Source: Alphaproteobacteria bacterium
GTDB taxonomy: Bacteria > Pseudomonadota > Alphaproteobacteria > Micavibrionales > Micavibrionaceae
Length of the DNA: 64,000 nucleotides
NCBI GenBank assembly: GCA_021775955.1
Contig: JAJFGU010000016.1
Span: 4,721-68,720 of the forward strand
Reading direction: 5' to 3'
The position numbers and the translations under genes were made by a program. Positions within the stretch are counted from its first letter, which is position 1, and each line of letters begins with the position of its first letter. The notes under the pieces are model-generated. The model was not told the DNA's origin. It did no database searches and was given only the letters and a program-made list of their open reading frames with translations. Positions 139-54,783 of this stretch are shown in pieces.

Positions 139-2823
139 TTATTTTTTTAAAATCGGAATGGTCATTGGGTAAAAACCCTCTTCACTAAATTCCTGTTGTT
201 CCGGTACATAAAGGCGGATATTGCCCTGAAACCCATCGATGACGTCTTTTTTCTTAAAATCCAGCTTTACCCCGCCATCAGAGCGGTAAATGCCGGAGTC
301 TTTGCTGGTTTCTTTCAGCACAACATCAAAACCTTTTTTCGGTTTTTTCTCGGGTTCTACCCGCACCGTGATTTCATCCTGGCGTCTTTTGCAATTCATA
401 TCGCTTGTGACCTCGATCCAGATCTTGTCACCAAGCGCGAACATGCCGTCCGGCGATTCCTTAAAGCCTTCATTAAGCGCCGTAACGTATCCCGCATGTT
501 TCCAGATTGGATCAAGTTTTAACCATTGTGCTTCACCAGCAAAAAACTTTTCGGGTAACAGGTCAAGGTGACTGGGACGATGGCCATCATCGAGTTTGCT
601 AATACAATAATTTTTATCACAATATTCAGAATTAATAACGGGTTCAAACCCGCCGGTAAGATTAGGCGGGAGATCATAATCCAGCATCTGGTGCGTCATA
701 TTGGCCAGCTCATGCTGATAGGCTTGGCCCAGAGCGGGAGTCGGATTAACAAGATAGCCCTGCGGCGTGCCCTTGCTGCGCGTACCTTTAACGGTTGCCT
801 TGGGGCCGAGGCTAATCAGCTTATCGATCATGGCATCGCTGACACCACCCCCTATCCAGTTGCGAAGAAAGCCGCGATCCGCCTTTGTATAAACATGCTC
901 CAGATCTAATTGATCGCCCTTCAATGTGCCTTCATAGACCATATAATCTTTACCGCTATAAATCGTGGCACTCACCTTGCCACCTTTTTCCTGAACAACA
1001 GCTTCATTCTCAAAAAGCGGATGCACGGCCCAGCATTCCCCGTCCGTGACCGGTGCCAATGCCTGTTTTTCGCCGCATAGCTTACCGTCTTTCTGGCGCG
1101 CCGTTATCTTTGTTTCAGAGGCGTGTTTTGCCAGCGCTTTCAGTTTTTCCTGTAACGGGAAATAAATGATGTTCGGATCGACTTCCTGTGAAAGCTTTGC
1201 GCGCAGCTCTTTTAGTGAAGGGTTTGCTGCTTCCGGCAAGGTACTAATTTTTGATCCAAGGCATTTCAAGAACGCTTCATAGGCAGCGTTCATTTCCTTA
1301 TGATAGGCCTTATAGGCAACATCGATTGCATCCTGATTTTTGTTGTAAACAGCCAGCGCCGCTTTGCGCTCTTTTTCAATTGCAGGCAGTAAGGCATCAA
1401 TTTTATCCCACGCCGCCTGCCGCGCCGCTTCGGTTTCTTTTTCCCGTGCCTGTAGAATTTCAAGACTTTCCAGCTTGTTCAGACGCGCCAGCTCGGCTTT
1501 ATATTGCGTGCGCTTATCAGCATCCGGGGCGGCAGTAGCCAGATCTTCTAATTTTGAACGGTTTTCCGCCAAACTCTGCGCATCGAGCAGATCATCACGC
1601 ACACGTTGCAGCGCCTGGTGGTGCTCTGCAGCCTCTACCATCGCCACACGCCACTCTTCGCGTTTGGCTTCCAGCTTGTTTTCGGCCGCCCCATTTTCGG
1701 CTTCCAGCTTTGCGACGGCCTTTTCACGTTTGGCTTTAGCACCTTTTTCCGCCTGCTTATGCTGTTTACTGCATTCGCTTTCGCGGAATTTGGCTTTGCA
1801 GCCCGTAGCCAGTTTTTTAATCCGGTCGGCAAGATCGCTCACCTTGCGCTGGCGCTCCTGTGCCATGCCAATAGCAACACCGCCAAACATCTCAGCAAGA
1901 CGCAGGTCGCGCTGCGCAGCAAAAGTATCGTCAAGCTGCACCATGGCTTCTTCAAGGTGACGGCGCTTACCCGCCACCAGCGGTTCCATCAAGGCATTGA
2001 CCACTGCGCGCGTCACGATCTGTACGGCCTTGGATACCGTGGCTTTTGGGTCTTTACCCACTACTGCCGCGCCCAGCTTTTTCGTCAGTTTGCCTGTTTC
2101 GCCAACGCCCACAATCCGGACACTGCCGATTTGCGAACTGACAGAGCCGATAAAACTATCGCCGAAGCTTCCTTTTGCTGTTCCGGCAGTATCCTGCCCC
2201 AGCTTGCCCAATGCTGTTTTATGTTCCAAAGCCAGATCAGCACCCTGATTGACGCTGTAATTAATGAGGGACGCATAGGTATGTTGCAAAAATCTTTCCG
2301 CGTTGCCGGCGGCTCCTTGCGCATCGCCTGTTAAATAGCTCACCGTAATCCCGGCCGTCAGATGCGCGGCGCGCTGCGTTAATTCCAGCACAAATAAAGC
2401 GTTTTTCATTTTGGACATTTCACCCTGCAGACCTTTAGCTTGGGCGATCGCGGCAAATTTCTGGTTACGCGCGAGATTTTCAAGCTCTTCTTGCGCGATG
2501 CGGGTCATGGACACAGACAGATTAGTGGCCTCCAGCGACTGATAAATCTGCTCGGCCAGTTTTTCAATTTTCGCACAATCAAGCTTGACGCATTTCTTGT
2601 CATCCTTGATTTGGTTTTTCGCACCCTGAAACTCTTTTTCGAGCCTTTTTACTTCAGACTCCAGCGCGTCCAAATGCTGGTCGACAATTTTGACTTCCTT
2701 GGTTGTTTCATCAACCCAGGCGGCATAAAGAGAGTTTTTGAAATCACCCGCCATAGCCGGATTGCTAAAAACTAATGCCGTGAAGAGCCATACGGTTGCT
2801 AATAAGCGCATGATTGTATCCAT
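139..2823 (-). CDS. Large secreted coiled-coil-rich protein, function unknown
   Basis: 894-aa ORF. The N-terminus MDTIMRLLATVWLFTALVFSNPAMA looks like a signal peptide. Long charged heptad-like stretches follow (EAENGAAENKLEAKREEWR...), then a globular Cys-containing C-terminal third. I recognise no family motif. Confidence 0.6.
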   Translation of the reverse strand: MDTIMRLLATVWLFTALVFSNPAMAGDFKNSLYAAWVDETTKEVKIVDQHLDALESEVKRLEKEFQGAKNQIKDDKKCVKLDCAKIEKLAEQIYQSLEATNLSVSMTRIAQEELENLARNQKFAAIAQAKGLQGEMSKMKNALFVLELTQRAAHLTAGITVSYLTGDAQGAAGNAERFLQHTYASLINYSVNQGADLALEHKTALGKLGQDTAGTAKGSFGDSFIGSVSSQIGSVRIVGVGETGKLTKKLGAAVVGKDPKATVSKAVQIVTRAVVNALMEPLVAGKRRHLEEAMVQLDDTFAAQRDLRLAEMFGGVAIGMAQERQRKVSDLADRIKKLATGCKAKFRESECSKQHKQAEKGAKAKREKAVAKLEAENGAAENKLEAKREEWRVAMVEAAEHHQALQRVRDDLLDAQSLAENRSKLEDLATAAPDADKRTQYKAELARLNKLESLEILQAREKETEAARQAAWDKIDALLPAIEKERKAALAVYNKNQDAIDVAYKAYHKEMNAAYEAFLKCLGSKISTLPEAANPSLKELRAKLSQEVDPNIIYFPLQEKLKALAKHASETKITARQKDGKLCGEKQALAPVTDGECWAVHPLFENEAVVQEKGGKVSATIYSGKDYMVYEGTLKGDQLDLEHVYTKADRGFLRNWIGGGVSDAMIDKLISLGPKATVKGTRSKGTPQGYLVNPTPALGQAYQHELANMTHQMLDYDLPPNLTGGFEPVINSEYCDKNYCISKLDDGHRPSHLDLLPEKFFAGEAQWLKLDPIWKHAGYVTALNEGFKESPDGMFALGDKIWIEVTSDMNCKRRQDEITVRVEPEKKPKKGFDVVLKETSKDSGIYRSDGGVKLDFKKKDVIDGFQGNIRLYVPEQQEFSEEGFYPMTIPILKK

Positions 2824-3062: not shown

Positions 3063-5144
3063 TCAAATCGCCTTCACGATATGCTTCGCATTCAGCCCGG
3101 CCTGTTCGTATTGCTCGAGTGGGATGTCGTGATCCTGGAAAATATCGGGCAGGTGCATGGTTTTGACGCGGCAGGAGCCGAGCAGGTTTTCATTGTTCAT
3201 GAATTCGAGCACGAAGGAGCCGAACCCGCCGCGCGAGCCTTCCTCTATCGTGATGAGGGTTTCGTGGTTTTTCGCGAGGTCTTTGATGAGCTCTTCATCC
3301 AGCGGTTTGGCAAAACGCGCATCGGCGACCGTGACGGAGATATTTTTCTGCTCCAGAATTTTTGCGGCGAGGAGGGCTTCACTTAAACGCGCGCCGTAAG
3401 AGAGGATGGCAACGTCGCCAGAGATGTCATTTCGAGCGGAGCGAGAAATCTCACGATTATCGGGAGATCCCTCCGCCTGCGGCGTTCGGGATGACAGAGA
3501 GGTGGAATGAACAATCCGCCCCTTGCCGATCTCTAAAATTTCACCGATCTCCGGAATCTCCACGCCCGTGCCTTCACCGCGCGGGTATCGGAATGCAATC
3601 GGGCCGTCATTATACGCCGCCGCGGTGGCGACCATATGGGTGAGCTCGGCCTCGTCACTGGCAGCCATCAGCACAAAATTCGGCAGGCACCCCAAATACG
3701 CGACATCAAACGCGCCGGCATGGGTCTGGCCGTCGGCACCAACCAGCCCCGCGCGATCAAGCGCAAAACGCACGGGTAGATTTTGAATGGCCACATCATG
3801 AACGATCTGATCATAGGCGCGCTGTAAAAACGTAGAGTAAATCGTGGCGAAGGGTTTGAACCCTTCCGTGGCCAGACCGGCGGCAAAGGTCACGGCGTGC
3901 TGCTCGGCGATACCGACATCAAAACTTCTCTCGGGAAATTCTTCGGCGAACAAATCCATCCCCGTGCCGTCGGGCATCGCGGCGGTGATACCGATAATCT
4001 TTTCGTCCTTGCGCGCTTCTTTAATCAGGCTTTGCGCGTAGACTTTGGTATAGCTGGGCGCGCCGGGTGCGCTTTTGGCCTGATCGCCGGTGATGACATC
4101 GAATTTCTTGACGCCATGCATTTTACAGGCGGCGTTCTCGGCGGGCGCGTAGCCCTTGCCCTTTTTGGTGATGGTATGAATGAGGACGGGGCCTTCGTGG
4201 TGCGCCTCTTTGACATTGCGCAGGATGGGCAAAAGATCGTCAAGGTTATGGCCGTCAACCGGGCCGATATAATAAAAGCCCATATCTTCAAACAGCGTGC
4301 CGGAGCTGCCCTGTTCGGGGGTGAAGGTCATGCGCGCGGTTTCCTCGGCGCGTTTGGCGGCAAAGCGGATCGGCTTTGGCAGATATTCGGTGATGCGCTT
4401 GCCGATCTCGCGCGCGGACATATAGGGTTTGGAGGACACAAGGCGCGCGAGGTAGCTTGCCAGCGCGCCGACCGGCGGGGCGATCGACATTTCATTGTCG
4501 TTGAGGATGACGATGAGGCGCGACTTCATTGCGCCCGCGTTGTTCATCGCCTCGTATGCCATGCCCGCGCTCATCGCGCCGTCACCGATAACGCAGATGA
4601 TGTTGTTGTCATTATCGGACAGGTCGCGCGCCACCGCCATGCCGAGCCCGGCAGAAACGGATGTGGAGCTATGCGCCGCGCCGAAGGGATCAAATTCGCT
4701 CTCGCTGCGCTTGGTGAAACCGGACAGCCCGCCACCCTGACGGAGTGTGTGGATGCGATCGCGGCGGCCGGTGAGAATTTTATGCGGGTAGCATTGATGC
4801 CCGACATCCCAGATCAGCTTGTCTTCGGGCGTGTTGAAAATCGCGTGAATGGCGACGGTCAGCTCGACCACGCCAAGGCCCGCGCCGAGATGCCCGCCGG
4901 TTTTGGACACCGCGTTGATGGTCTCAGAGCGCAGCTCACCGGCGAGAATTTTTAGCTCATCGTCTTCGAGATGTTTGAGATCGGCGGGGGTGGTTACCAG
5001 ATCGAGCAGGGGGGTTTTGCTGGTTTTTTTGTCCAGGGCTTTCTTGTTGTTTTCCCCGCGCAAGCGGGGATCTTCCGTGGAAGCGTCCCTAAGGTCCCCG
5101 CCTTCGCGGGGAAGACAGTCTTGTGTTTTCTGTGCCTGGGTCAT
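3063..5144 (-). CDS. dxs: 1-deoxy-D-xylulose-5-phosphate synthase, carrying two repeat-derived in-frame segments
   Basis: Dxs hallmarks are present: GHxGx[63 protein letters not shown]. The extra N-terminal ~30 aa and an internal ~27-aa insert both coincide with repeats. Confidence 0.95.
3426..3495. repeat. 70-bp imperfect palindrome GTCATTTCGAG...CGGGATGAC (family B, short form) inside dxs
   Basis: Direct reading. Arms GTCATTTCGAGCGGAGCGAGAAATCTC and GAGATCCCTCCGCCTGCGGCGTTCGGGATGAC flank an 11-nt centre. A related copy lies at 53791-53866. Confidence 0.85.
5050..5115. repeat. Cluster of GC hairpins (family A): CCCCGC-gcaa-GCGGGG, CTTCC-gtg-GAAG, CCCCGC-cttc-GCGGGG
   Basis: Direct reading at 5054-5069, 5072-5084 and 5096-5111. 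The same hairpin type occurs at 21467-21527 and 50608-50650. It lies within the first ~32 codons of the dxs ORF. Confidence 0.85.
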
Positions 5145-5727: not shown

Positions 5728-6639
5728 CTAAGCCCGCCTTGCCAAAACATACTCCGCCAAATCCTTAAGCACCTGCGCGCGGCCTTCGAACACTTTGAGG
5801 TGGGCGATGGCCTGCTGGACGATCATCTCGGCGCGCTCGCGTGCCTGCTCCTTACCCATAGCGGAAACAAAGGTGGCTTTGCCGGCCTCGGCATCCTTGC
5901 CGCCGTCTTTGCCGGTATCCTGCGGGTCGGCTTCAACGTCCAAAATATCGTCGGTGACCTGAAACGCCAGACCGAGATCAAAGGCATAATTTCTCAGCGC
6001 GCGGCGGTGGGGCTCATCGGCTTTACCCAAAATCGCACCGGATTCACAGGCAAAAGCCATGAGCTTGCCGGTTTTCATGCGCTGCATGCGGCTGATGGTG
6101 CCAAGGTCGAATTCTTTCTTCTCGCCGATAAGGTCGAGCATCTGCCCGCCGGCCATACCGTGGCCGCCCGCCGCTTGGCCTAGGCTTCGGATCAGCTCAC
6201 AACGCACACGCGGGTCTTCATGGGTATCGGATTCGGCGAGAATTTCAAAGGCCAGCGTGAGCAGGGCATCACCGGCTAAAATCGCGGTGGCCTCGTCATA
6301 TTGTTTGTGCACAGTCGGCTTGCCACGGCGCAAAGAGGCATCATCCATCGCCGGCAAATCATCGTGAATAAGTGAATAACAATGCAGAAATTCAACCGCC
6401 GCCGCCACACGGCGTGAGCGGTTGGTATCGACATTGAACAGATTGGCCGAATGGATGGCCAGAAACGGGCGTAGCCTTTTGCCGCCGCCCAGCGTGCCGT
6501 GGCGCATGGCATCGTAGAGCTGGTTTTCCGCCAGATCGGTGTCGGGTAAAAGGCGCTCGATGGTACGGTTGACGGCATCGGCCGTTTCGTCCATGGCTTC
6601 TTGTAATTCGGGTTTTGCGTCTCTCGGCGATGGGGCCAT
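5728..6639 (-). CDS. ispA: Farnesyl/geranyl diphosphate synthase (polyprenyl synthetase family)
   Basis: First and second Asp-rich motifs are present (LIHDDLPAMDD and FQVTDDILD). It sits in the xseB-ispA-dxs neighbourhood. Confidence 0.9.
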   Translation of the reverse strand: MAPSPRDAKPELQEAMDETADAVNRTIERLLPDTDLAENQLYDAMRHGTLGGGKRLRPFLAIHSANLFNVDTNRSRRVAAAVEFLHCYSLIHDDLPAMDDASLRRGKPTVHKQYDEATAILAGDALLTLAFEILAESDTHEDPRVRCELIRSLGQAAGGHGMAGGQMLDLIGEKKEFDLGTISRMQRMKTGKLMAFACESGAILGKADEPHRRALRNYAFDLGLAFQVTDDILDVEADPQDTGKDGGKDAEAGKATFVSAMGKEQARERAEMIVQQAIAHLKVFEGRAQVLKDLAEYVLARRA

Positions 6640-6685
6640 GTTAGTGTTTTCCTATTATTAGTTTTTAACTATTTAAAAGTTCTGA

Positions 6686-6766
6686 AACGCAAAGTTAGAC
6701 AAAGTTAAACAAAGTTTCATTTTTTCTTTGTGCTCACTTTGTCTGACTTTGTTTTACTTTGCGGTT
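6686..6766. repeat. Inverted pair of phased arms built from the word CAAAGT/ACTTTG (3 units + 4 units, 9-nt centre)
   Basis: Left arm 6686-6716 is AACGCAAAGTTAGACAAAGTTAAACAAAGTT. Right arm 6726-6766 is CTTTGTGCTCACTTTGTCTGACTTTGTTTTACTTTGCGGTT. Period is 10 bp. Confidence 0.85.
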
Positions 6767-6839
6767 TAAAAATAATCTGCATTTATCAGCTTTATCTGCT
6801 TGCCCGCCATAGCTTTAGCGACGGCGGGTGGTTTCATTC

Positions 6840-21420: not shown

Positions 21421-21569
21421 AACCGCGAATGGACACGAATACACACGAATTTTTTCTTTTTGCTTTCCCTGCGAAAGCAGGGATATTTAAAAACAAACAC
21501 AACAAACAGATCCCCGCCTACGCGGGGAAAGCACTAATTATTTGTGTTCATTCGTGTTTATTCGTGGTT
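21421..21569. repeat. Dyad-symmetric cassette: outward phased arms (word TTCGTG) around two GC tetraloop hairpins
   Basis: Left arm 21421-21450 is AACCGCGAATGGACACGAATACACACGAAT. Hairpins are CCCTGC-gaaa-GCAGGG (21467-21482) and CCCCGC-ctac-GCGGGG (21512-21527). Right arm 21541-21569 is TTTGTGTTCATTCGTGTTTATTCGTGGTT. Confidence 0.9.
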
Positions 21570-21591
21570 CTTTTTGCTTTATGTTATTCCG

Positions 21592-22860
21592 ATGTTCGAT
21601 ATTAAAGCCATACGGGAAAACCCGGACGAGTTTGACAAAGGCTGGGCCAGGCGGGGTCTGGAGCCGCAGACGGACGCCATTTTGAAGCTGGATGAGGAGC
21701 GGCGGGGTATTCAGACCGAGCTGCAGGAGCTTCAGGCCGAGCGCAATGAAAAATCCCAGAAAATCGGTGAGATTAAAAAATCCGGCGGCGATGCAAAGGG
21801 CGCTATGGATGAGGTCGCGGCGCTGAAGGATAAGATGGCAGAGCTGGAAGAGCGCGAACGCACGGTCGCTGAGTCTTTGAACCAGCATCTGGCCGGTCTG
21901 CCGAATATTATGGCCGATGATGTGCCGGACGGTAAAACCGAAGATGATAATGTTGAAGTTCGTAAACACGGCGAACCTTCAAAAGACAAAGTACCCGAGC
22001 ATTTTGAAATCGGCGAAGTTTTGGGCCTGATGGATTTTGAAACGGCCGCGAAAATGTCGGGCAGCCGTTTTGTGGTGCTCAGCGGCGGGCTGGCACGGCT
22101 CGAGCGGGCGCTCGGGATGTTTTTCCTTGATGTGCATACGGCAGAGCATGGCTATATGGAAGTTTCGCCGCCGCTCATGATTAAAGATAATGCGATGTTT
22201 GGAACCGGACAGCTTCCGAAATTTGCGGAAGATCAATTCCGTACCACGCGTGATGACTGGTTGTTGCCAACGGCTGAAGTGCCGCTGGCCAATATGGTCG
22301 CGGATTCAATTGTTGAGGATGATACTCTGCCGCGGCGCTACACCGCCTTTACACCATGTTTCAGACAGGAAGCCGGGGCGGCGGGCAAGGACACGCGCGG
22401 CATGATCCGCATGCATCAGTTTTACAAGGTCGAGATGGTGTCCGTCACCACGCCGGAAGAGTCTGAGGCCGAGCATGAGCGCATGACCAAATGTGCTGAA
22501 ACCGTTTTAGAGAAGCTGGAGCTGCCGTTTCGGACGGTGATGTTGTGCAGTGGTGATACAGGCTTTGGCGCGCGCAAGACCTATGACATTGAGGTCTGGC
22601 TGCCGGGGCAGGGGCGCTACCGCGAGATTTCATCTTGTTCAAATTGCGGGGACTTCCAGGCGCGGCGCATGAATGCCCGCTATAAAAATGCGGACGGGAA
22701 GAATGTTTTCGTCCACACATTAAACGGCTCCGGCGTTGCGGTTGGCCGCGCGCTGATTGCGGTGATGGAGAATTATTATGACCCGGCCGATGGCGGGATT
22801 AATGTCCCGGATGTTTTGAAGCTCTATATGGGCGGGGTGGAGAAGATTACATCTTCTTAA
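21592..22860 (+). CDS. serS: Seryl-tRNA synthetase
   Basis: [11 protein letters not shown] starts the N-terminal coiled-coil arm, and class II motifs are present ([29 protein letters not shown]). The start is moved to the ATG at 21592. Confidence 0.95.
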
Positions 22861-33865: not shown

Positions 33866-34045
33866 ACCACAGATAAACACAGATAAATACAGATTTTTGT
33901 AACGAAGATACGAAGTAACGAGGAAATATAAATAAAACTTCGGATCTTCGAAACTTCGTTACATATTAAATATTTAAATCTTCTTTTTTATTATCTGTGT
34001 CTATCCGTGTTCATCTGTGGTTTTTAAATTTTTTAATTTGTGGTT
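33866..34045. repeat. Nested cassette: outer phased arms (word ATCTGTG) enclosing an inner inverted pair of arms (word CTTCG), plus an extra GTGGTT box
   Basis: Outer left arm 33866-33894 is ACCACAGATAAACACAGATAAATACAGAT. Inner left 33899-33923 is GTAACGAAGATACGAAGTAACGAGG. Inner right 33936-33962 is AACTTCGGATCTTCGAAACTTCGTTAC. Outer right 33993-34022 is ATCTGTGTCTATCCGTGTTCATCTGTGGTT. A second GTGGTT lies at 34040-34045. Confidence 0.9.
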
Positions 34046-41444: not shown

Positions 41445-41510
41445 GCACGCATATGCCTAAAGTGTAGTGTTTCTCCTTTAAGCTTTTTCTTCGCTTTTCT
41501 CTCTCTCCCT

Positions 41511-42760
<1,250 letters not shown>

Positions 42761-49060: not shown

Positions 49061-49654
49061 TTACTGCTCGATTGTTTGTTGAATTTCATCAACGATTGCT
49101 TCACCGGCAGCTGGTTCTTGACCAGCGGCCTCGGCAGCTCCTTCTGTTGCTTCGGCAGCGGCTTCAGTAGCTTGCTCGGCGGCAGGAGCCGCTTCAGTTG
49201 CTGTTGCAGCTTCAGTAGCTTGCTCGGTGGCTTCGGTAGCTGTTTCTGTAGTGCTTTCCGTTGCTTCTGAAACAGCTTCGCTGATGGCTTCGCCCGTCGT
49301 TGCGGCCATTTCGCCAGCACTCTCAGCCGTTATCTCAGCAGCGTCAGTTGCCATTTCAGCGGCCCCAGACATTGCCTCGCCCGCGGCTTCTGTAGCACCA
49401 CTGGCAGCTTCAGTCGCTGTTTCAGCGGCATCCGTTGCCATTTCAGCAGCTTCACCGGCAGCTTCAGTCATGAAGTCGGATGTACCGGAAATGGTGTCAT
49501 CGATAAAACCACCGGATTGCTCACCAGCGGCTGGTTCGATGCCTGAAAAAGCCCCGGTTTGCGGCGCCATTTGATTGTAAATTGCAAAAATTGCAACCAG
49601 ACCCACAGCCAGTACGGCAGCGGAATAAACGATAGATTTGGTAAAATTGCTCAT
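49061..49654 (-). CDS. N-terminally membrane-anchored, highly acidic Ala/Thr/Glu low-complexity repeat protein
   Basis: TM segment IVYSAAVLAVGLVAIFAIY, then about 150 aa of AAEMATDAAE / TEAATEA-type repeats with an internal duplication. 197 aa. Confidence 0.5.
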   Translation of the reverse strand: MSNFTKSIVYSAAVLAVGLVAIFAIYNQMAPQTGAFSGIEPAAGEQSGGFIDDTISGTSDFMTEAAGEAAEMATDAAETATEAASGATEAAGEAMSGAAEMATDAAEITAESAGEMAATTGEAISEAVSEATESTTETATEATEQATEAATATEAAPAAEQATEAAAEATEGAAEAAGQEPAAGEAIVDEIQQTIEQ

Positions 49655-50550: not shown

Positions 50551-50561
50551 AAGGCTTTATA

Positions 50562-50700
50562 AACCACAGATAGACACAGATAAACACGGATTATTCTTTT
50601 CTGTTTTCCCCGCGTAAGCGGGGATCTAGTAAGATTCCTGCTTTCGCAGGAAAAGCAGCGCTACATTTTTATCTGTGTAAATTTGTGTCCATCTGTGGTT
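50562..50700. repeat. Dyad-symmetric cassette: outward phased arms (word ATCTGTG) around two GC tetraloop hairpins
   Basis: Left arm 50562-50590 is AACCACAGATAGACACAGATAAACACGGA. Hairpins are CCCCGC-gtaa-GCGGGG (50608-50623) and CCTGC-tttc-GCAGG (50637-50650). Right arm 50671-50700 is ATCTGTGTAAATTTGTGTCCATCTGTGGTT. Confidence 0.9.
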
Positions 50701-53670: not shown

Positions 53671-53790
53671 CATAATCCATTAACCTCTTCTTTCCATTTA
53701 AGGTGGCATGATGGTCTGTGATCTGGTAGATTATGGGTATCAATATGGGGTTCCTCATGAATAGAAATCAAAGACTTATAAGGCGTTCTT

Positions 53791-53866
53791 GTTATCCCGA
53801 GCGAAGCCGAGGGATCTGGTCAATAGCCACGAGATCCCTCCACGCGCTGCGCTTGGTCGGGATGAC
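53791..53866. repeat. 76-bp palindromic element (family B, short form) GTTATCCCGAG...GGTCGGGATGAC
   Basis: Collinear with the dxs-internal copy (GT[C/T]ATCCCGA..GAGGGATCT...GAGAT..CTC...ATGAC). The terminal GGGATGAC contains the ATG at 53862. Confidence 0.85.
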
Positions 53867-54500
53867 GGGGTTGGTGGTGAGCGCTGTTCTTTCATTTTCA
53901 ATCTCATCGGCTTCGGCCGAGGTTTTTGTCGTCGATCATGAGGTCGGGCGCTTTTCCCTGTCCTATCCGGATAGCTGGCGGCGCATCCATAATCAAAACC
54001 CCAGTGATATGCTGACCATCGCCGGGCCGGGGCAGGACGATTATGCGACCTGCCGTATGCGGGTGAAGGATGATAAGCGCTTTGTGATTTATCCCGTGCG
54101 CTACAGTGAAGAAATTCAGAAGATCGGCTATAGCAAGGATTTCTGGTTCGGTTATATGGGCGAATATGACGATCCGTATATTGATTACGTCACCGATAAC
54201 GGCAGCATGGGGCGCGGCTTTGCCAGTTACGCCGAAGCTTCTTACACGACGGCGGTGGGGCCAAAGGTCGAAAAGCGTGCGCTGATGTTTGCTTCGCTCT
54301 ATAATGACAAGGCCTATATCTTTGAATGCTCGGCGGAAGCCTCGACCTATCTCAAATGGGCACCGGATTTCCTGAGCATCGTCAAATCGGTTGATTTCAA
54401 GAAATCGATCCAGGAAATGAAAACCGGGCATTACCGTGATTTCCTTGATGAGCGCCTGATCATCAATGGCGCGCGTGATATCGACGTTTCCGTTCATTAA
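53862..54500 (+). CDS. Secreted hypothetical protein
   Basis: From the ATG at 53862 the product starts MTGLVVSAVLSFSISSASAEV, which looks like a signal peptide. The 43 upstream codons of the track ORF are repeat-derived. Confidence 0.5.
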   Translation: MTGLVVSAVLSFSISSASAEVFVVDHEVGRFSLSYPDSWRRIHNQNPSDMLTIAGPGQDDYATCRMRVKDDKRFVIYPVRYSEEIQKIGYSKDFWFGYMGEYDDPYIDYVTDNGSMGRGFASYAEASYTTAVGPKVEKRALMFASLYNDKAYIFECSAEASTYLKWAPDFLSIVKSVDFKKSIQEMKTGHYRDFLDERLIINGARDIDVSVH

Positions 54501-54511
54501 AACTCCCATAC

Positions 54512-54638
54512 GTCATCCCGTTGGCGCTTTCGCATAGCGAAAGTTTGCACGAACGGGATCCATAGTGTCAGCCGCTTTGCGGCTGTCTTTTCTGGATCCC
54601 CGCTGTTTAAGTCCGCTGTCGCGGACCGCGGGGATGAC
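54512..54638. repeat. 127-bp composite palindromic element (family B, long form) GTCATCCCG...CGGGGATGAC
   Basis: Hairpin modules: ATCCCGTT[CTTTCGC-ata-GCGAAAG]..AACGGGAT; CAGCCGC-ttt-GCGGCTG; CCCCGC[GTCCGC-tgtc-GCGGAC]GCGGGG. It is collinear with 41511-41633. Confidence 0.9.
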
Positions 54639-54664
54639 AATAGGGGTGTTAAAATAACTTTTTC

Positions 54665-54753
54665 GTCATGCCGGACTTGATCCGGCATTTATGCCAACAT
54701 AGAGTGCGCAGGCATAAACCCCGGATAAGCCCTTACGGACTTTCCGGGGTGAC
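54665..54753. repeat. 89-bp palindromic element GTCATGCCGGA...TCCGGGGTGAC adjacent to the previous one
   Basis: Hairpins ATGCCGGA-cttga-TCCGGCAT, ATGCC...GGCAT, and CCCCGG...CCGGGG. The termini are inverted (GTCATGCCGGA vs GTCACCCCGGA). Confidence 0.8.
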
Positions 54754-54783
54754 AATGTCTTTTACAGGTAAAGCTCAAAGCGA

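Follow-up and report, generated by a model that had tools for sequence, protein, structure and literature searches.

An in-frame dimer of TGTC-tagged palindromic repeats in the dxs gene of a Micavibrio-like alphaproteobacterium

We analysed a stretch of 64,000 nucleotides, here called the window, from contig JAJFGU010000016.1 of an alphaproteobacterial assembly (GCA_021775955.1, family Micavibrionaceae), in which the essential gene dxs, encoding 1-deoxy-D-xylulose-5-phosphate synthase (Dxs), carries a palindromic element within its reading frame. The element is very probably a non-autonomous repeat, namely a head-to-head dimer of TGTC-tagged units of the CGTC-tagged superfamily of repetitive extragenic palindromes (REPs), which sits in frame at the tip of a Dxs hairpin; its peptide would be a passenger, and its units may be recognised by an Ssn-type nuclease encoded elsewhere in the genome. 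The finding is known in kind, since both the traits of this superfamily and a catalogue of in-frame copies have been documented (Di Nocera et al. 2013, BMC Genomics 14:522, PMC3733652). Three points are new: dxs holds a second dimer, its hairpin has served repeatedly as a landing pad, and single units are conserved as such. Altogether, dxs is added to the essential genes with translated palindromic repeats, and among Micavibrio-like predatory bacteria such Rickettsia-type insertions are common. The original prediction, made from the sequence alone, had described the dxs insert; it had missed the documented catalogue of such insertions, the second dimer in dxs and the overlap of another copy with a coding start.

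An in-frame dimer at the tip of a Dxs hairpin

The closest proteins to the dxs product of the window are Dxs enzymes of Micavibrio-like metagenome-assembled genomes with the Pfam domains PF13292, PF02779 and PF02780, and the match to E. coli Dxs (PDB 2O1S) has an E-value of 1e-183. Between the motifs GKGRIV and AILSYG the window protein has 34 residues, compared to 7 in related enzymes. The corresponding hairpin segment comprises 46 residues, in agreement with the roughly 27 extra residues claimed earlier, as against 19 (IGKGRIxREGxxxAxLSxG) in all 75 dxs loci of more distant Alphaproteobacteria; these came from a metagenome scan for Dxs relatives, the matches of which were all more distant and uninserted. 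Since the length of 19 residues is fixed in these loci, the uninserted hairpin represents the ancestral state. The alignment to solved Dxs structures is interrupted at residues 546-578 of the window protein, which correspond to residues 499-506 of the E. coli enzyme, in accord with the E. coli sequence cited in the original prediction, and to residues 544-549 of the Arabidopsis enzyme (PDB 7BZX). The insert is thus located at the tip of the first β-hairpin of domain III. Alignment against orthologues, including those with empty sites in the relatives L001 and L210, revealed that the additional 27 residues are confined to the hairpin turn. The insert of 90 nt keeps the frame and contains no stop codon, and the intact dxs reading frame includes the peptide quoted before.

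A model of the window protein was predicted by AlphaFold2 from an alignment of 53 sequences. In this model the flanking strands, residues 543-547 and 578-583, are confident (blocks of predicted local distance difference test, pLDDT, of 89 and 82, respectively), and the insert between them has a pLDDT of about 46-56. As expected from the original prediction of a surface loop, the insert would thus protrude from the surface as a disordered segment. All columns that are invariant across the 53 sequences are retained in the window protein, and the comparison with the dxs of the relative L003 (84% amino-acid identity, 57% third-position identity) displays a pattern of purifying selection. As dxs is also present in a single copy in the window, the gene looks functional. 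The element occupies the same position in L003 and L004, giving three independent assemblies together with the window, which makes an assembly artefact unlikely.

Units of the CGTC-tagged superfamily have an unpaired CGTC tag (often TGTC), a stem that starts with A-T and then T-A, and a 3-nt tail; they occur mostly as head-to-head dimers, often heterodimers, with no associated transposase (PMC3733652). The dxs element presents the same tag, stem start and head-to-head layout. Its arms consist of an outer TGTCATYYCGA and an inner GAGRRATCTC, and the palindrome announced at 3426-3495 (70 bp) is real but extends one nucleotide further on each side (Table 1). Both units begin with TGTC, and both stems start with A-T followed by T-A (ATCCC...GGGAT and ATTTC...GAAAT). 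Each unit is composed of five Watson-Crick pairs, two G·A pairs, two to four more pairs and a GNA triloop, followed by a 3-nt tail of CTC or CTG, compared to the superfamily consensus CCA.

The 72-nt element taken alone as single-stranded DNA (ssDNA) has a folding energy of -15.8 kcal/mol, with z-scores of -2.6 and -2.3 for the two strands. An RNA fold over a wider stretch of 111 nt does not surpass shuffled sequences (z = -0.8). With a z-score of -4.3 for the ssDNA fold of a second copy at 53790-53867, the dxs copy is the weaker palindrome. This RNA fold would suit the view that no insertion had taken place, and that the segment is a chance-palindromic loop specific to the lineage, an assembly artefact or a pseudogene. 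This explanation is contradicted by the data and has next to no probability: tagged units of this kind recur in other parts of the window and were found at 120 or more loci from many phyla, the three assemblies share the element within a reading frame that keeps all invariant residues, and the bare element does fold better than shuffles (z = -2.6).

A pair of hairpin units in inverted orientation, set a short distance apart, would also fit a REP doublet forming a hairpin (REPIN) mobilised by a REP-associated tyrosine transposase (RAYT) of the IS200/IS605 type, or a classical MITE, a miniature transposable element with inverted repeats, derived from an insertion sequence (IS). However, the tag is TGTC or CGTC rather than GTAG, and repeats of the CGTC type are reported not to flank RAYT genes (PMC3733652). 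No RAYT match was detected in 1.7 Mb of loci, a weak test made with an E. coli RayT sequence as bait. Moreover, TCTC flanks both ends of the element in the window only; no target-site duplication is common to L003, L004 and L209, nor is one consistent across the filled sites. We consider this origin very improbable.

Table 1. Positions of the dxs element, related repeats and ssn-like genes
Feature	Locus	Coordinates	Strand	Basis
dxs (1-deoxy-D-xylulose-5-phosphate synthase) coding sequence, 693 aa	window	3063-5144	minus	list of open reading frames
30 codons H546-S575 in place of a 3-residue turn, net +27 residues	window	3420-3509	minus	alignments to empty sites L001 and L210; AlphaFold2 model
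72-bp imperfect palindrome, head-to-head dimer of TGTC-tagged REP units	window	3425-3496		inverted repeats; alignment to second copy; L003 and L004
Left unit TGTC-ATCCC-GA-A-CGCC-GCA-GGCG-GA-GGGAT-CTC (coding strand)	window	3464-3496	minus	conservation in window, L003 and L004
11-nt spacer between units	window	3453-3463		sequence; orthologue divergence at about background rate
Right unit TGTC-ATTTC-GA-GC-GGA-GC-GA-GAAAT-CTC (tag on plus strand)	window	3425-3452	plus	sequence; compensatory changes
Second in-frame REP dimer in dxs, CGTC-1 type, residues C10-N33 (CLPREGGDL...DPRLRGENN)	window	5048-5117		inverted repeat; fold; match to Ssn-related motif; peptide type
Second copy of the hairpin-unit family, 78-bp dimer	window	53790-53867		sequence; fold; reading-frame context
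ssn-like gene	L205	12104-12394		tagged-unit flanks
ssn-like gene	L206	12040-12342		tagged-unit flanks
ssn-like gene	L206	21434-21775		tagged-unit flanks
ssn-like gene	L208	12285-12572		tagged-unit flanks
ssn-like gene	L209	18533-18808		tagged-unit flanks
ssn-like gene	L211	10537-10824		tagged-unit flanks
ssn-like gene	L211	13339-13632		tagged-unit flanks
ssn-like gene	L034 (acidobacterial)	841-1176		flanks of the window's unit family

The second dimer in dxs, which lies in the N-terminal tail and had been overlooked, folds as ssDNA with a z-score of -5.0. Its left unit (5117) fits the published pattern of the Ssn-related motif (SRM). Its stem-loop of 8 bp and 4 nt, like those of other units in the window, lies within the geometry of the families CGTC-1 to CGTC-4, for which the text of the original description gives stems of 8-9 bp, loops of 4-5 nt and a CCA tail (PMC3733652). 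The dxs start M(T/A)QAQK, upstream of this dimer, is a conserved feature shared by the window, L001, P0003 and P0005. Between the dimer and the conserved Dxs core the frame contains neither ATG nor GTG, and the only TTG belongs to the repeat itself. Residues 1-40 have a pLDDT below 50 and form a disordered tail in the AlphaFold2 model; REP-type peptides are present at this tail in many relatives as well.

The copy at 53790-53867 was correctly recognised as a relative of the dxs element but is not purely intergenic, as it overlaps the 5′ part of the open reading frame (ORF) 53733/53757..54500, a secreted-protein gene. Its two units carry the tags TGTT and CGTC. The terminal GGGATGAC of this copy provides an ATG that is in frame (53862) and closely followed by a stretch resembling a signal peptide, and homologues of the ORF product (213-226 aa, with ordinary signal peptides) are aligned from query residue ~36 on. 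Judged from the sequence, either the ATG of the repeat would serve as the start codon, or the dimer would be translated within the n-region of the signal peptide.

Occupancy and history of the hairpin site

Comparison of 120 Micavibrio-like relatives revealed three landing pads for REP-encoded peptides in Dxs. The domain III hairpin, occupied in 64 of the 120 proteins, is used more often than the two others, which are the N-terminal tail and a loop of domain I. The domain I pad, in the loop after residue ~177 of P0001, is filled in P0013, P0030 and others (e.g. CIPRESGDLEDSRLRG) and vacant in the window. At the DNA level the hairpin inserts belong to varied REP families, including a monomer in L207, dimers in L205, L206 and L209, and two tandem units plus an inverted one in L208. 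Every filled site examined at this level consists of REP units or dimers, tagged in all cases except L206, the tags of which are degenerate. An extra segment at this site in relatives devoid of the repeat family, which would have argued against the original prediction, was therefore not seen; the REP-poor sisters are empty.

Occupancy tracks the REP load of the genome. Outside the hairpin, tagged units occur at 3.26 per 10 kb in filled loci compared to 0.91 in empty ones (p = 2e-5) and 0.26 in shuffles; in the two close relatives with an empty hairpin the density is only 0 and 0.45 units per 10 kb. Clean empty sister sites were found in L001 and L210. From L210 to L004 and from L001 to the window the same change is seen, in which two turn codons are replaced by Y/H-x-S/T-x, a dimer and two codons, and both pairs also lose one codon after a glycine. 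The Dxs protein P0034, from L004, carries the element of the window, while its five nearest relatives (82-83% identity) are empty with the hairpin RIVREGDEVAILSYG. Near the hairpin, the nucleotide identity between the window and L001 dips to 0.67-0.70 (vs 0.80), and that between the window and L003 rises to 0.85-0.88. Carriers differ in where the tag lies, which is 9 to 19 nt after the Val codon.

Two histories can be read from this pattern. The distribution around P0034, the same junction in both before/after pairs, and the identity dips and rises suggest that the filled allele has been exchanged by recombination. In its full form, this history would comprise one ancient insertion, followed by spread of the filled allele through homologous recombination with unit-by-unit gene conversion from other REPs; the junctions Y/H-x-S/T ... 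I/V-S/K-G-D common to several REP families would fit as well. By contrast, the variable position of the tag and the correlation with REP density favour repeated insertion events. In addition, the similarity between the window and L004 is not raised around the insert, and the tree of dxs relatives was built by neighbour-joining only. A single insertion thus seems to us a serious possibility, at somewhat less than even chances. In either case, the 19-residue hairpin of Dxs provides a natural test bed, being empty or filled with different REP families across closely related genomes.

Conservation of single units and a candidate nuclease

The dxs genes of the window, L003 and L004 were aligned by codons and scanned in stretches of 33 nt. 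The left unit of the hairpin dimer is the most conserved stretch of the whole gene, with 32 of 33 positions invariant compared to a mean of 20.8 (standard deviation, sd, 4.1), and the next-best stretch, at catalytic motifs, has 29. Third codon positions within the unit are invariant in 10 of 11 cases, against 32% gene-wide. Invariance falls to background precisely at the borders of the unit, and the spacer and the right unit drift. In a second, independent trio (L209, L211 and L212; 65-70% nucleotide identity), it is the right unit that stands out, with 26 of 28 invariant positions compared to a mean of 15.5 (sd 4.4), a tied maximum. Between the right unit of the window and its L004 orthologue (ATCTC/GAGAT), the stem differs by a compensatory double change. 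The inner-loop variant A-CGCC-GCA-GGCG of the left unit is rare; it is identical in the window and L003 and one base off in L004 (CCT for CCG), and no donor copy of it was found in ~95 kb of DNA of the three carriers.

Selection at the protein level cannot account for this conservation. As candidate causes, the unit may be selected for its role as a hairpin or recognition site, corrected from copies elsewhere in the genome, or replaced. Against correction speak the rarity of the inner-loop variant in the first trio and the lack of a donor in the ~95 kb. One explanation is that purifying selection acts on the nucleotides of the embedded unit because it is a functional cis-element with an incidental peptide, serving either as a protein or nuclease site on the coding strand that tunes recombination or uptake of dxs alleles, or as an mRNA hairpin for expression. 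It would account for a unit that is the most or tied most conserved stretch in two trios, third positions included and with sharp borders, for an orthologous stem kept by compensatory change, and for the near-identity of a rare loop in three carriers with no donor nearby. Against it, the evidence rests on two trios whose shared alleles may not be independent, the conserved unit is the left one in the first trio but the right one in the second, units in other carriers such as L206 have decayed and lost their tags, and many close relatives have no insert at all; furthermore, the Neisseria repeats are rarely intragenic and Ssn is inactive on RNA. We therefore hold a functional cis-element to be unlikely.

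With similar reserve, we raise the idea that the embedded units are actively maintained at the nucleotide level, whether as recognition sites, e.g. for an Ssn-type nuclease gating recombination at dxs, or by nuclease-driven copy-correction or homing-like rewriting. Instead of having survived at random, the hairpin would then be a docking site that is specifically targeted and has lasted for long, which we consider doubtful. Whatever its cause, the conservation of units leads to a testable prediction, namely recognition or correction of the tagged hairpin.

Ssn proteins are small single-domain GIY-YIG proteins (cd10448) that bind and cut the CGTC-1-type hairpin (NTS = CGTCATTCCCGCGMAVGCGGGAATCYRG) as ssDNA only, with a crucial upstream tag, and do not act on RNA (Nat Commun 2025;16:2388, PMC11893778). 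In relatives of the window, GIY-YIG genes of 91-113 aa adjoin or lie near dxs, each flanked by tagged units (Table 1); some of these ssn-like genes sit immediately downstream of dxs. In L205 and L208, the family flanking the nuclease gene (ATTGC...GCAAT) is the one that fills the Dxs hairpin of the same genome. The units flanking the second gene of L206 (21434-21775) and the gene of L034 belong to the family of the window, and other unit families flank GIY-YIG genes in L205, L208, L209, L159 and L211. Within the dxs of L209 and L211 there is a unit identical to the one that adjoins the L206 gene. As a separate observation, the L206 gene at 21434-21775 terminates inside a unit (…DPSTSLGMT…). 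Filling families that match those flanking ssn-like genes in L205 and L208, together with an occupancy that follows REP load, give this arrangement its interest.

We propose that REP repeats would land more or less anywhere, and that the survivors would be those copies with a length that is a multiple of three, free of stops in the frame used, and inserted at a permissive surface site of an essential gene, the encoded peptide being a passenger. By analogy with Ssn, the units may be recognised as ssDNA hairpins, through tag and stem, by a small Ssn-type GIY-YIG nuclease encoded elsewhere in the genome. Such recognition, or copying and correction linked to it, might keep single units near canonical while the spacer, the partner unit and nearby codons drift. 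Units could spread through the nuclease, through recombinational exchange of the filled allele, or both.

Several observations weigh against this proposal. The 64-kb window contains neither a GIY-YIG nuclease (ssn-like) gene nor a transposase. GIY-YIG genes are also rare in loci picked by the repeat pattern: a hidden Markov model of five local genes gave 3 matches in 897 kb of such loci and none in the window, and the idea that these genes are general neighbours of the repeats was rejected. Sequence searches against NCBIfam and PDB did not place the GIY-YIG proteins of the relatives in the Ssn family. The SRM pattern HGTCWYN(0-2)YYVSBRHN(0-5)WNVSBRGN(0-2)RNCYNB is unmatched by both dxs hairpin units and by both units at 53790-53867. 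As far as the text description of CGTC-1 to CGTC-4 goes, the hairpin unit is set apart from all four, consisting of 5 bp, tandem G·A pairs and 2-4 bp with a GNA triloop and a CTC tail; the same features agree with the original prediction of a different family. Finally, random insertion with subsequent filtering does not explain the same stereotyped junction from L210 to L004 and from L001 to the window, nor one unit that is more conserved than catalytic motifs.

Distribution of the units and comparison with known systems

The source genome, as seen in the 64-kb window, is rich in REPs of several unit families, with two dimers of the hairpin-unit family and several other tagged units. Further tagged hairpin units with CCA or TTA tails are located between genes at 54511-54760 (starts near 54512+, 54638-, 54665+ and 54753-), and one more intergenic unit is found at 41511+ (41510-41557); the units at 41511, 54512 and 54638 have CCA tails. 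A composite palindromic element of ~140 nt is present at 21421-21569, 33866-34028 and 50556-50700, with outer arms of ACCACAGATAAACACAGATAAATACAGA-like heptamer runs, and encloses a CGTC-1-like dimer in two of the three copies (21461-21533 and 50602-50657), an arrangement that recalls the REP dimers nested in longer palindromes of Di Nocera et al. In addition, a palindrome of CAAAGTTAGACAAAGT-type repeats lies at 6680-6771, just upstream of an ispA-like gene (5728-6639, minus strand), and degenerate 21-nt periodic repeats (GCAGCTTCAGTAGC...-like) at 49104-49450 are probably a low-complexity coding stretch.

An exact-pattern scan with the half-site GTCATCCCGARCG-N3-14-GAGGGATCT, using one genome per species, detected at least 120 loci (L005-L124). 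Among the matches listed are Acidobacteriota, Gemmatimonadota, Bacteroidota, Planctomycetota, Verrucomicrobiota, Alpha- and Gammaproteobacteria, Bdellovibrionota, Omnitrophota, Chloroflexota and Firmicutes, and exact matches of the unit GTCATCCCGAGCG(N)AGCGAGGGATCT occur in more than 10 phyla among these loci. The unit stem, with tandem G·A pairs and a GNA triloop, is of the d(GCGNAGC) mini-hairpin type. In the same listed matches, 59 of 146 half-sites have an inverted partner within ~100 nt, all four GNA loops are common (GCGCAGC 23, GCGAAGC 19, GCGTAGC 15 and GCGGAGC 6), and the stem triplets are perfectly complementary in 206 of 219 units; in loci not chosen by the repeat, 14 of 16 units have this property. 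The stem covaries across at least eight variants (CCC/GGG, TCC/GGA, CCT/AGG, TTC/GAA, CTC/GAG, GCC/GGC, TCT/AGA and GTT/AAC). An adaptation of the dimers to coding was considered and rejected, as their length modulo 3 is evenly spread and they have 2.6 stop-free frames of 6 compared to 2.4 in shuffles. Rfam searches at gathering and permissive thresholds gave only two tRNAs and noise, with no matching family, and a literature search by the exact repeat sequence yielded nothing relevant and no paper quoting the unit. The hairpin units of the window probably constitute an unlisted family of the superfamily.

Rickettsia palindromic elements (RPEs), reportedly described by Ogata et al. in 2000, are palindromic repeats that lie in frame in essential genes and are translated as extra surface peptide segments, the ~150-bp RPE-1 being the classic in-frame element. 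The window element likewise lies in frame in an intact dxs without a stop, and from its reading frame it is predicted to be translated. They differ in host clade (Micavibrio-like compared to Rickettsia), unit sequence and size, and are linked via the CGTC superfamily, in which RPE-6 of R. conorii corresponds to CGTC-1 and RPE-4 to CGTC-4 (PMC3733652). The likeness to RPEs drawn in the original prediction thus holds at the superfamily level, and better than had been assumed.

REPINs and RAYTs are said to have been treated by Bertels and Rainey in 2011 and Nunvar in 2010. REPINs are doublets of inverted hairpin units that make a larger hairpin and form populations of short non-autonomous repeats, with a GTAG tag and an associated tyrosine transposase, the RAYT. 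The dxs element is similar in being an inverted hairpin doublet, but differs in its TGTC tag and in that no RAYT was detected in the DNA searched.

The superfamily also includes the dRS3/NTS repeats of Neisseria, alias Ssn-related motifs. These motifs occur in the flanks of 71% of ssn homologues, and Ssn is found in 81% of genomes with more than 200 motifs; the function demonstrated for Ssn is the restriction of transforming ssDNA, and its role outside Neisseria and the mobility of the motifs were left as open questions (PMC11893778), on both of which the present case bears, including how CGTC-type repeats spread. The tagged hairpin, the orientation set by the upstream tag, and the layout of repeat, nuclease and repeat are also seen in the relatives of the window. 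However, NTS is rarely intragenic in Neisseria (2%; PMC11893778), compared to two dimers within the single dxs gene of the window.

The CGTC-tagged superfamily itself is predominantly alphaproteobacterial, with Micavibrio aeruginosavorus explicitly included (PMC3733652). Additional file 3 of that study lists in-frame units or dimers in IleRS, GlyRS-β, Pol I, DnaE2, TruB, PBP1C and CobN, among other genes; RHPREGGDP...DPRLRGG is an example of the encoded peptides, and dxs is absent from the interrupted genes (PMC3733652). The N-terminal dimer of the window encodes the same type of peptide as the catalogued CGTC-1 dimers. The family found here occurs in many more phyla than the five reported for the superfamily. 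Nevertheless, the window element resembles the superfamily in its tag, the A-T/T-A start of the stem and the head-to-head dimers, as well as in its presence in a Micavibrio-like host, its in-frame position in a housekeeping gene and the absence of a flanking transposase; its tail is likewise 3 nt long but reads CTC or CTG.

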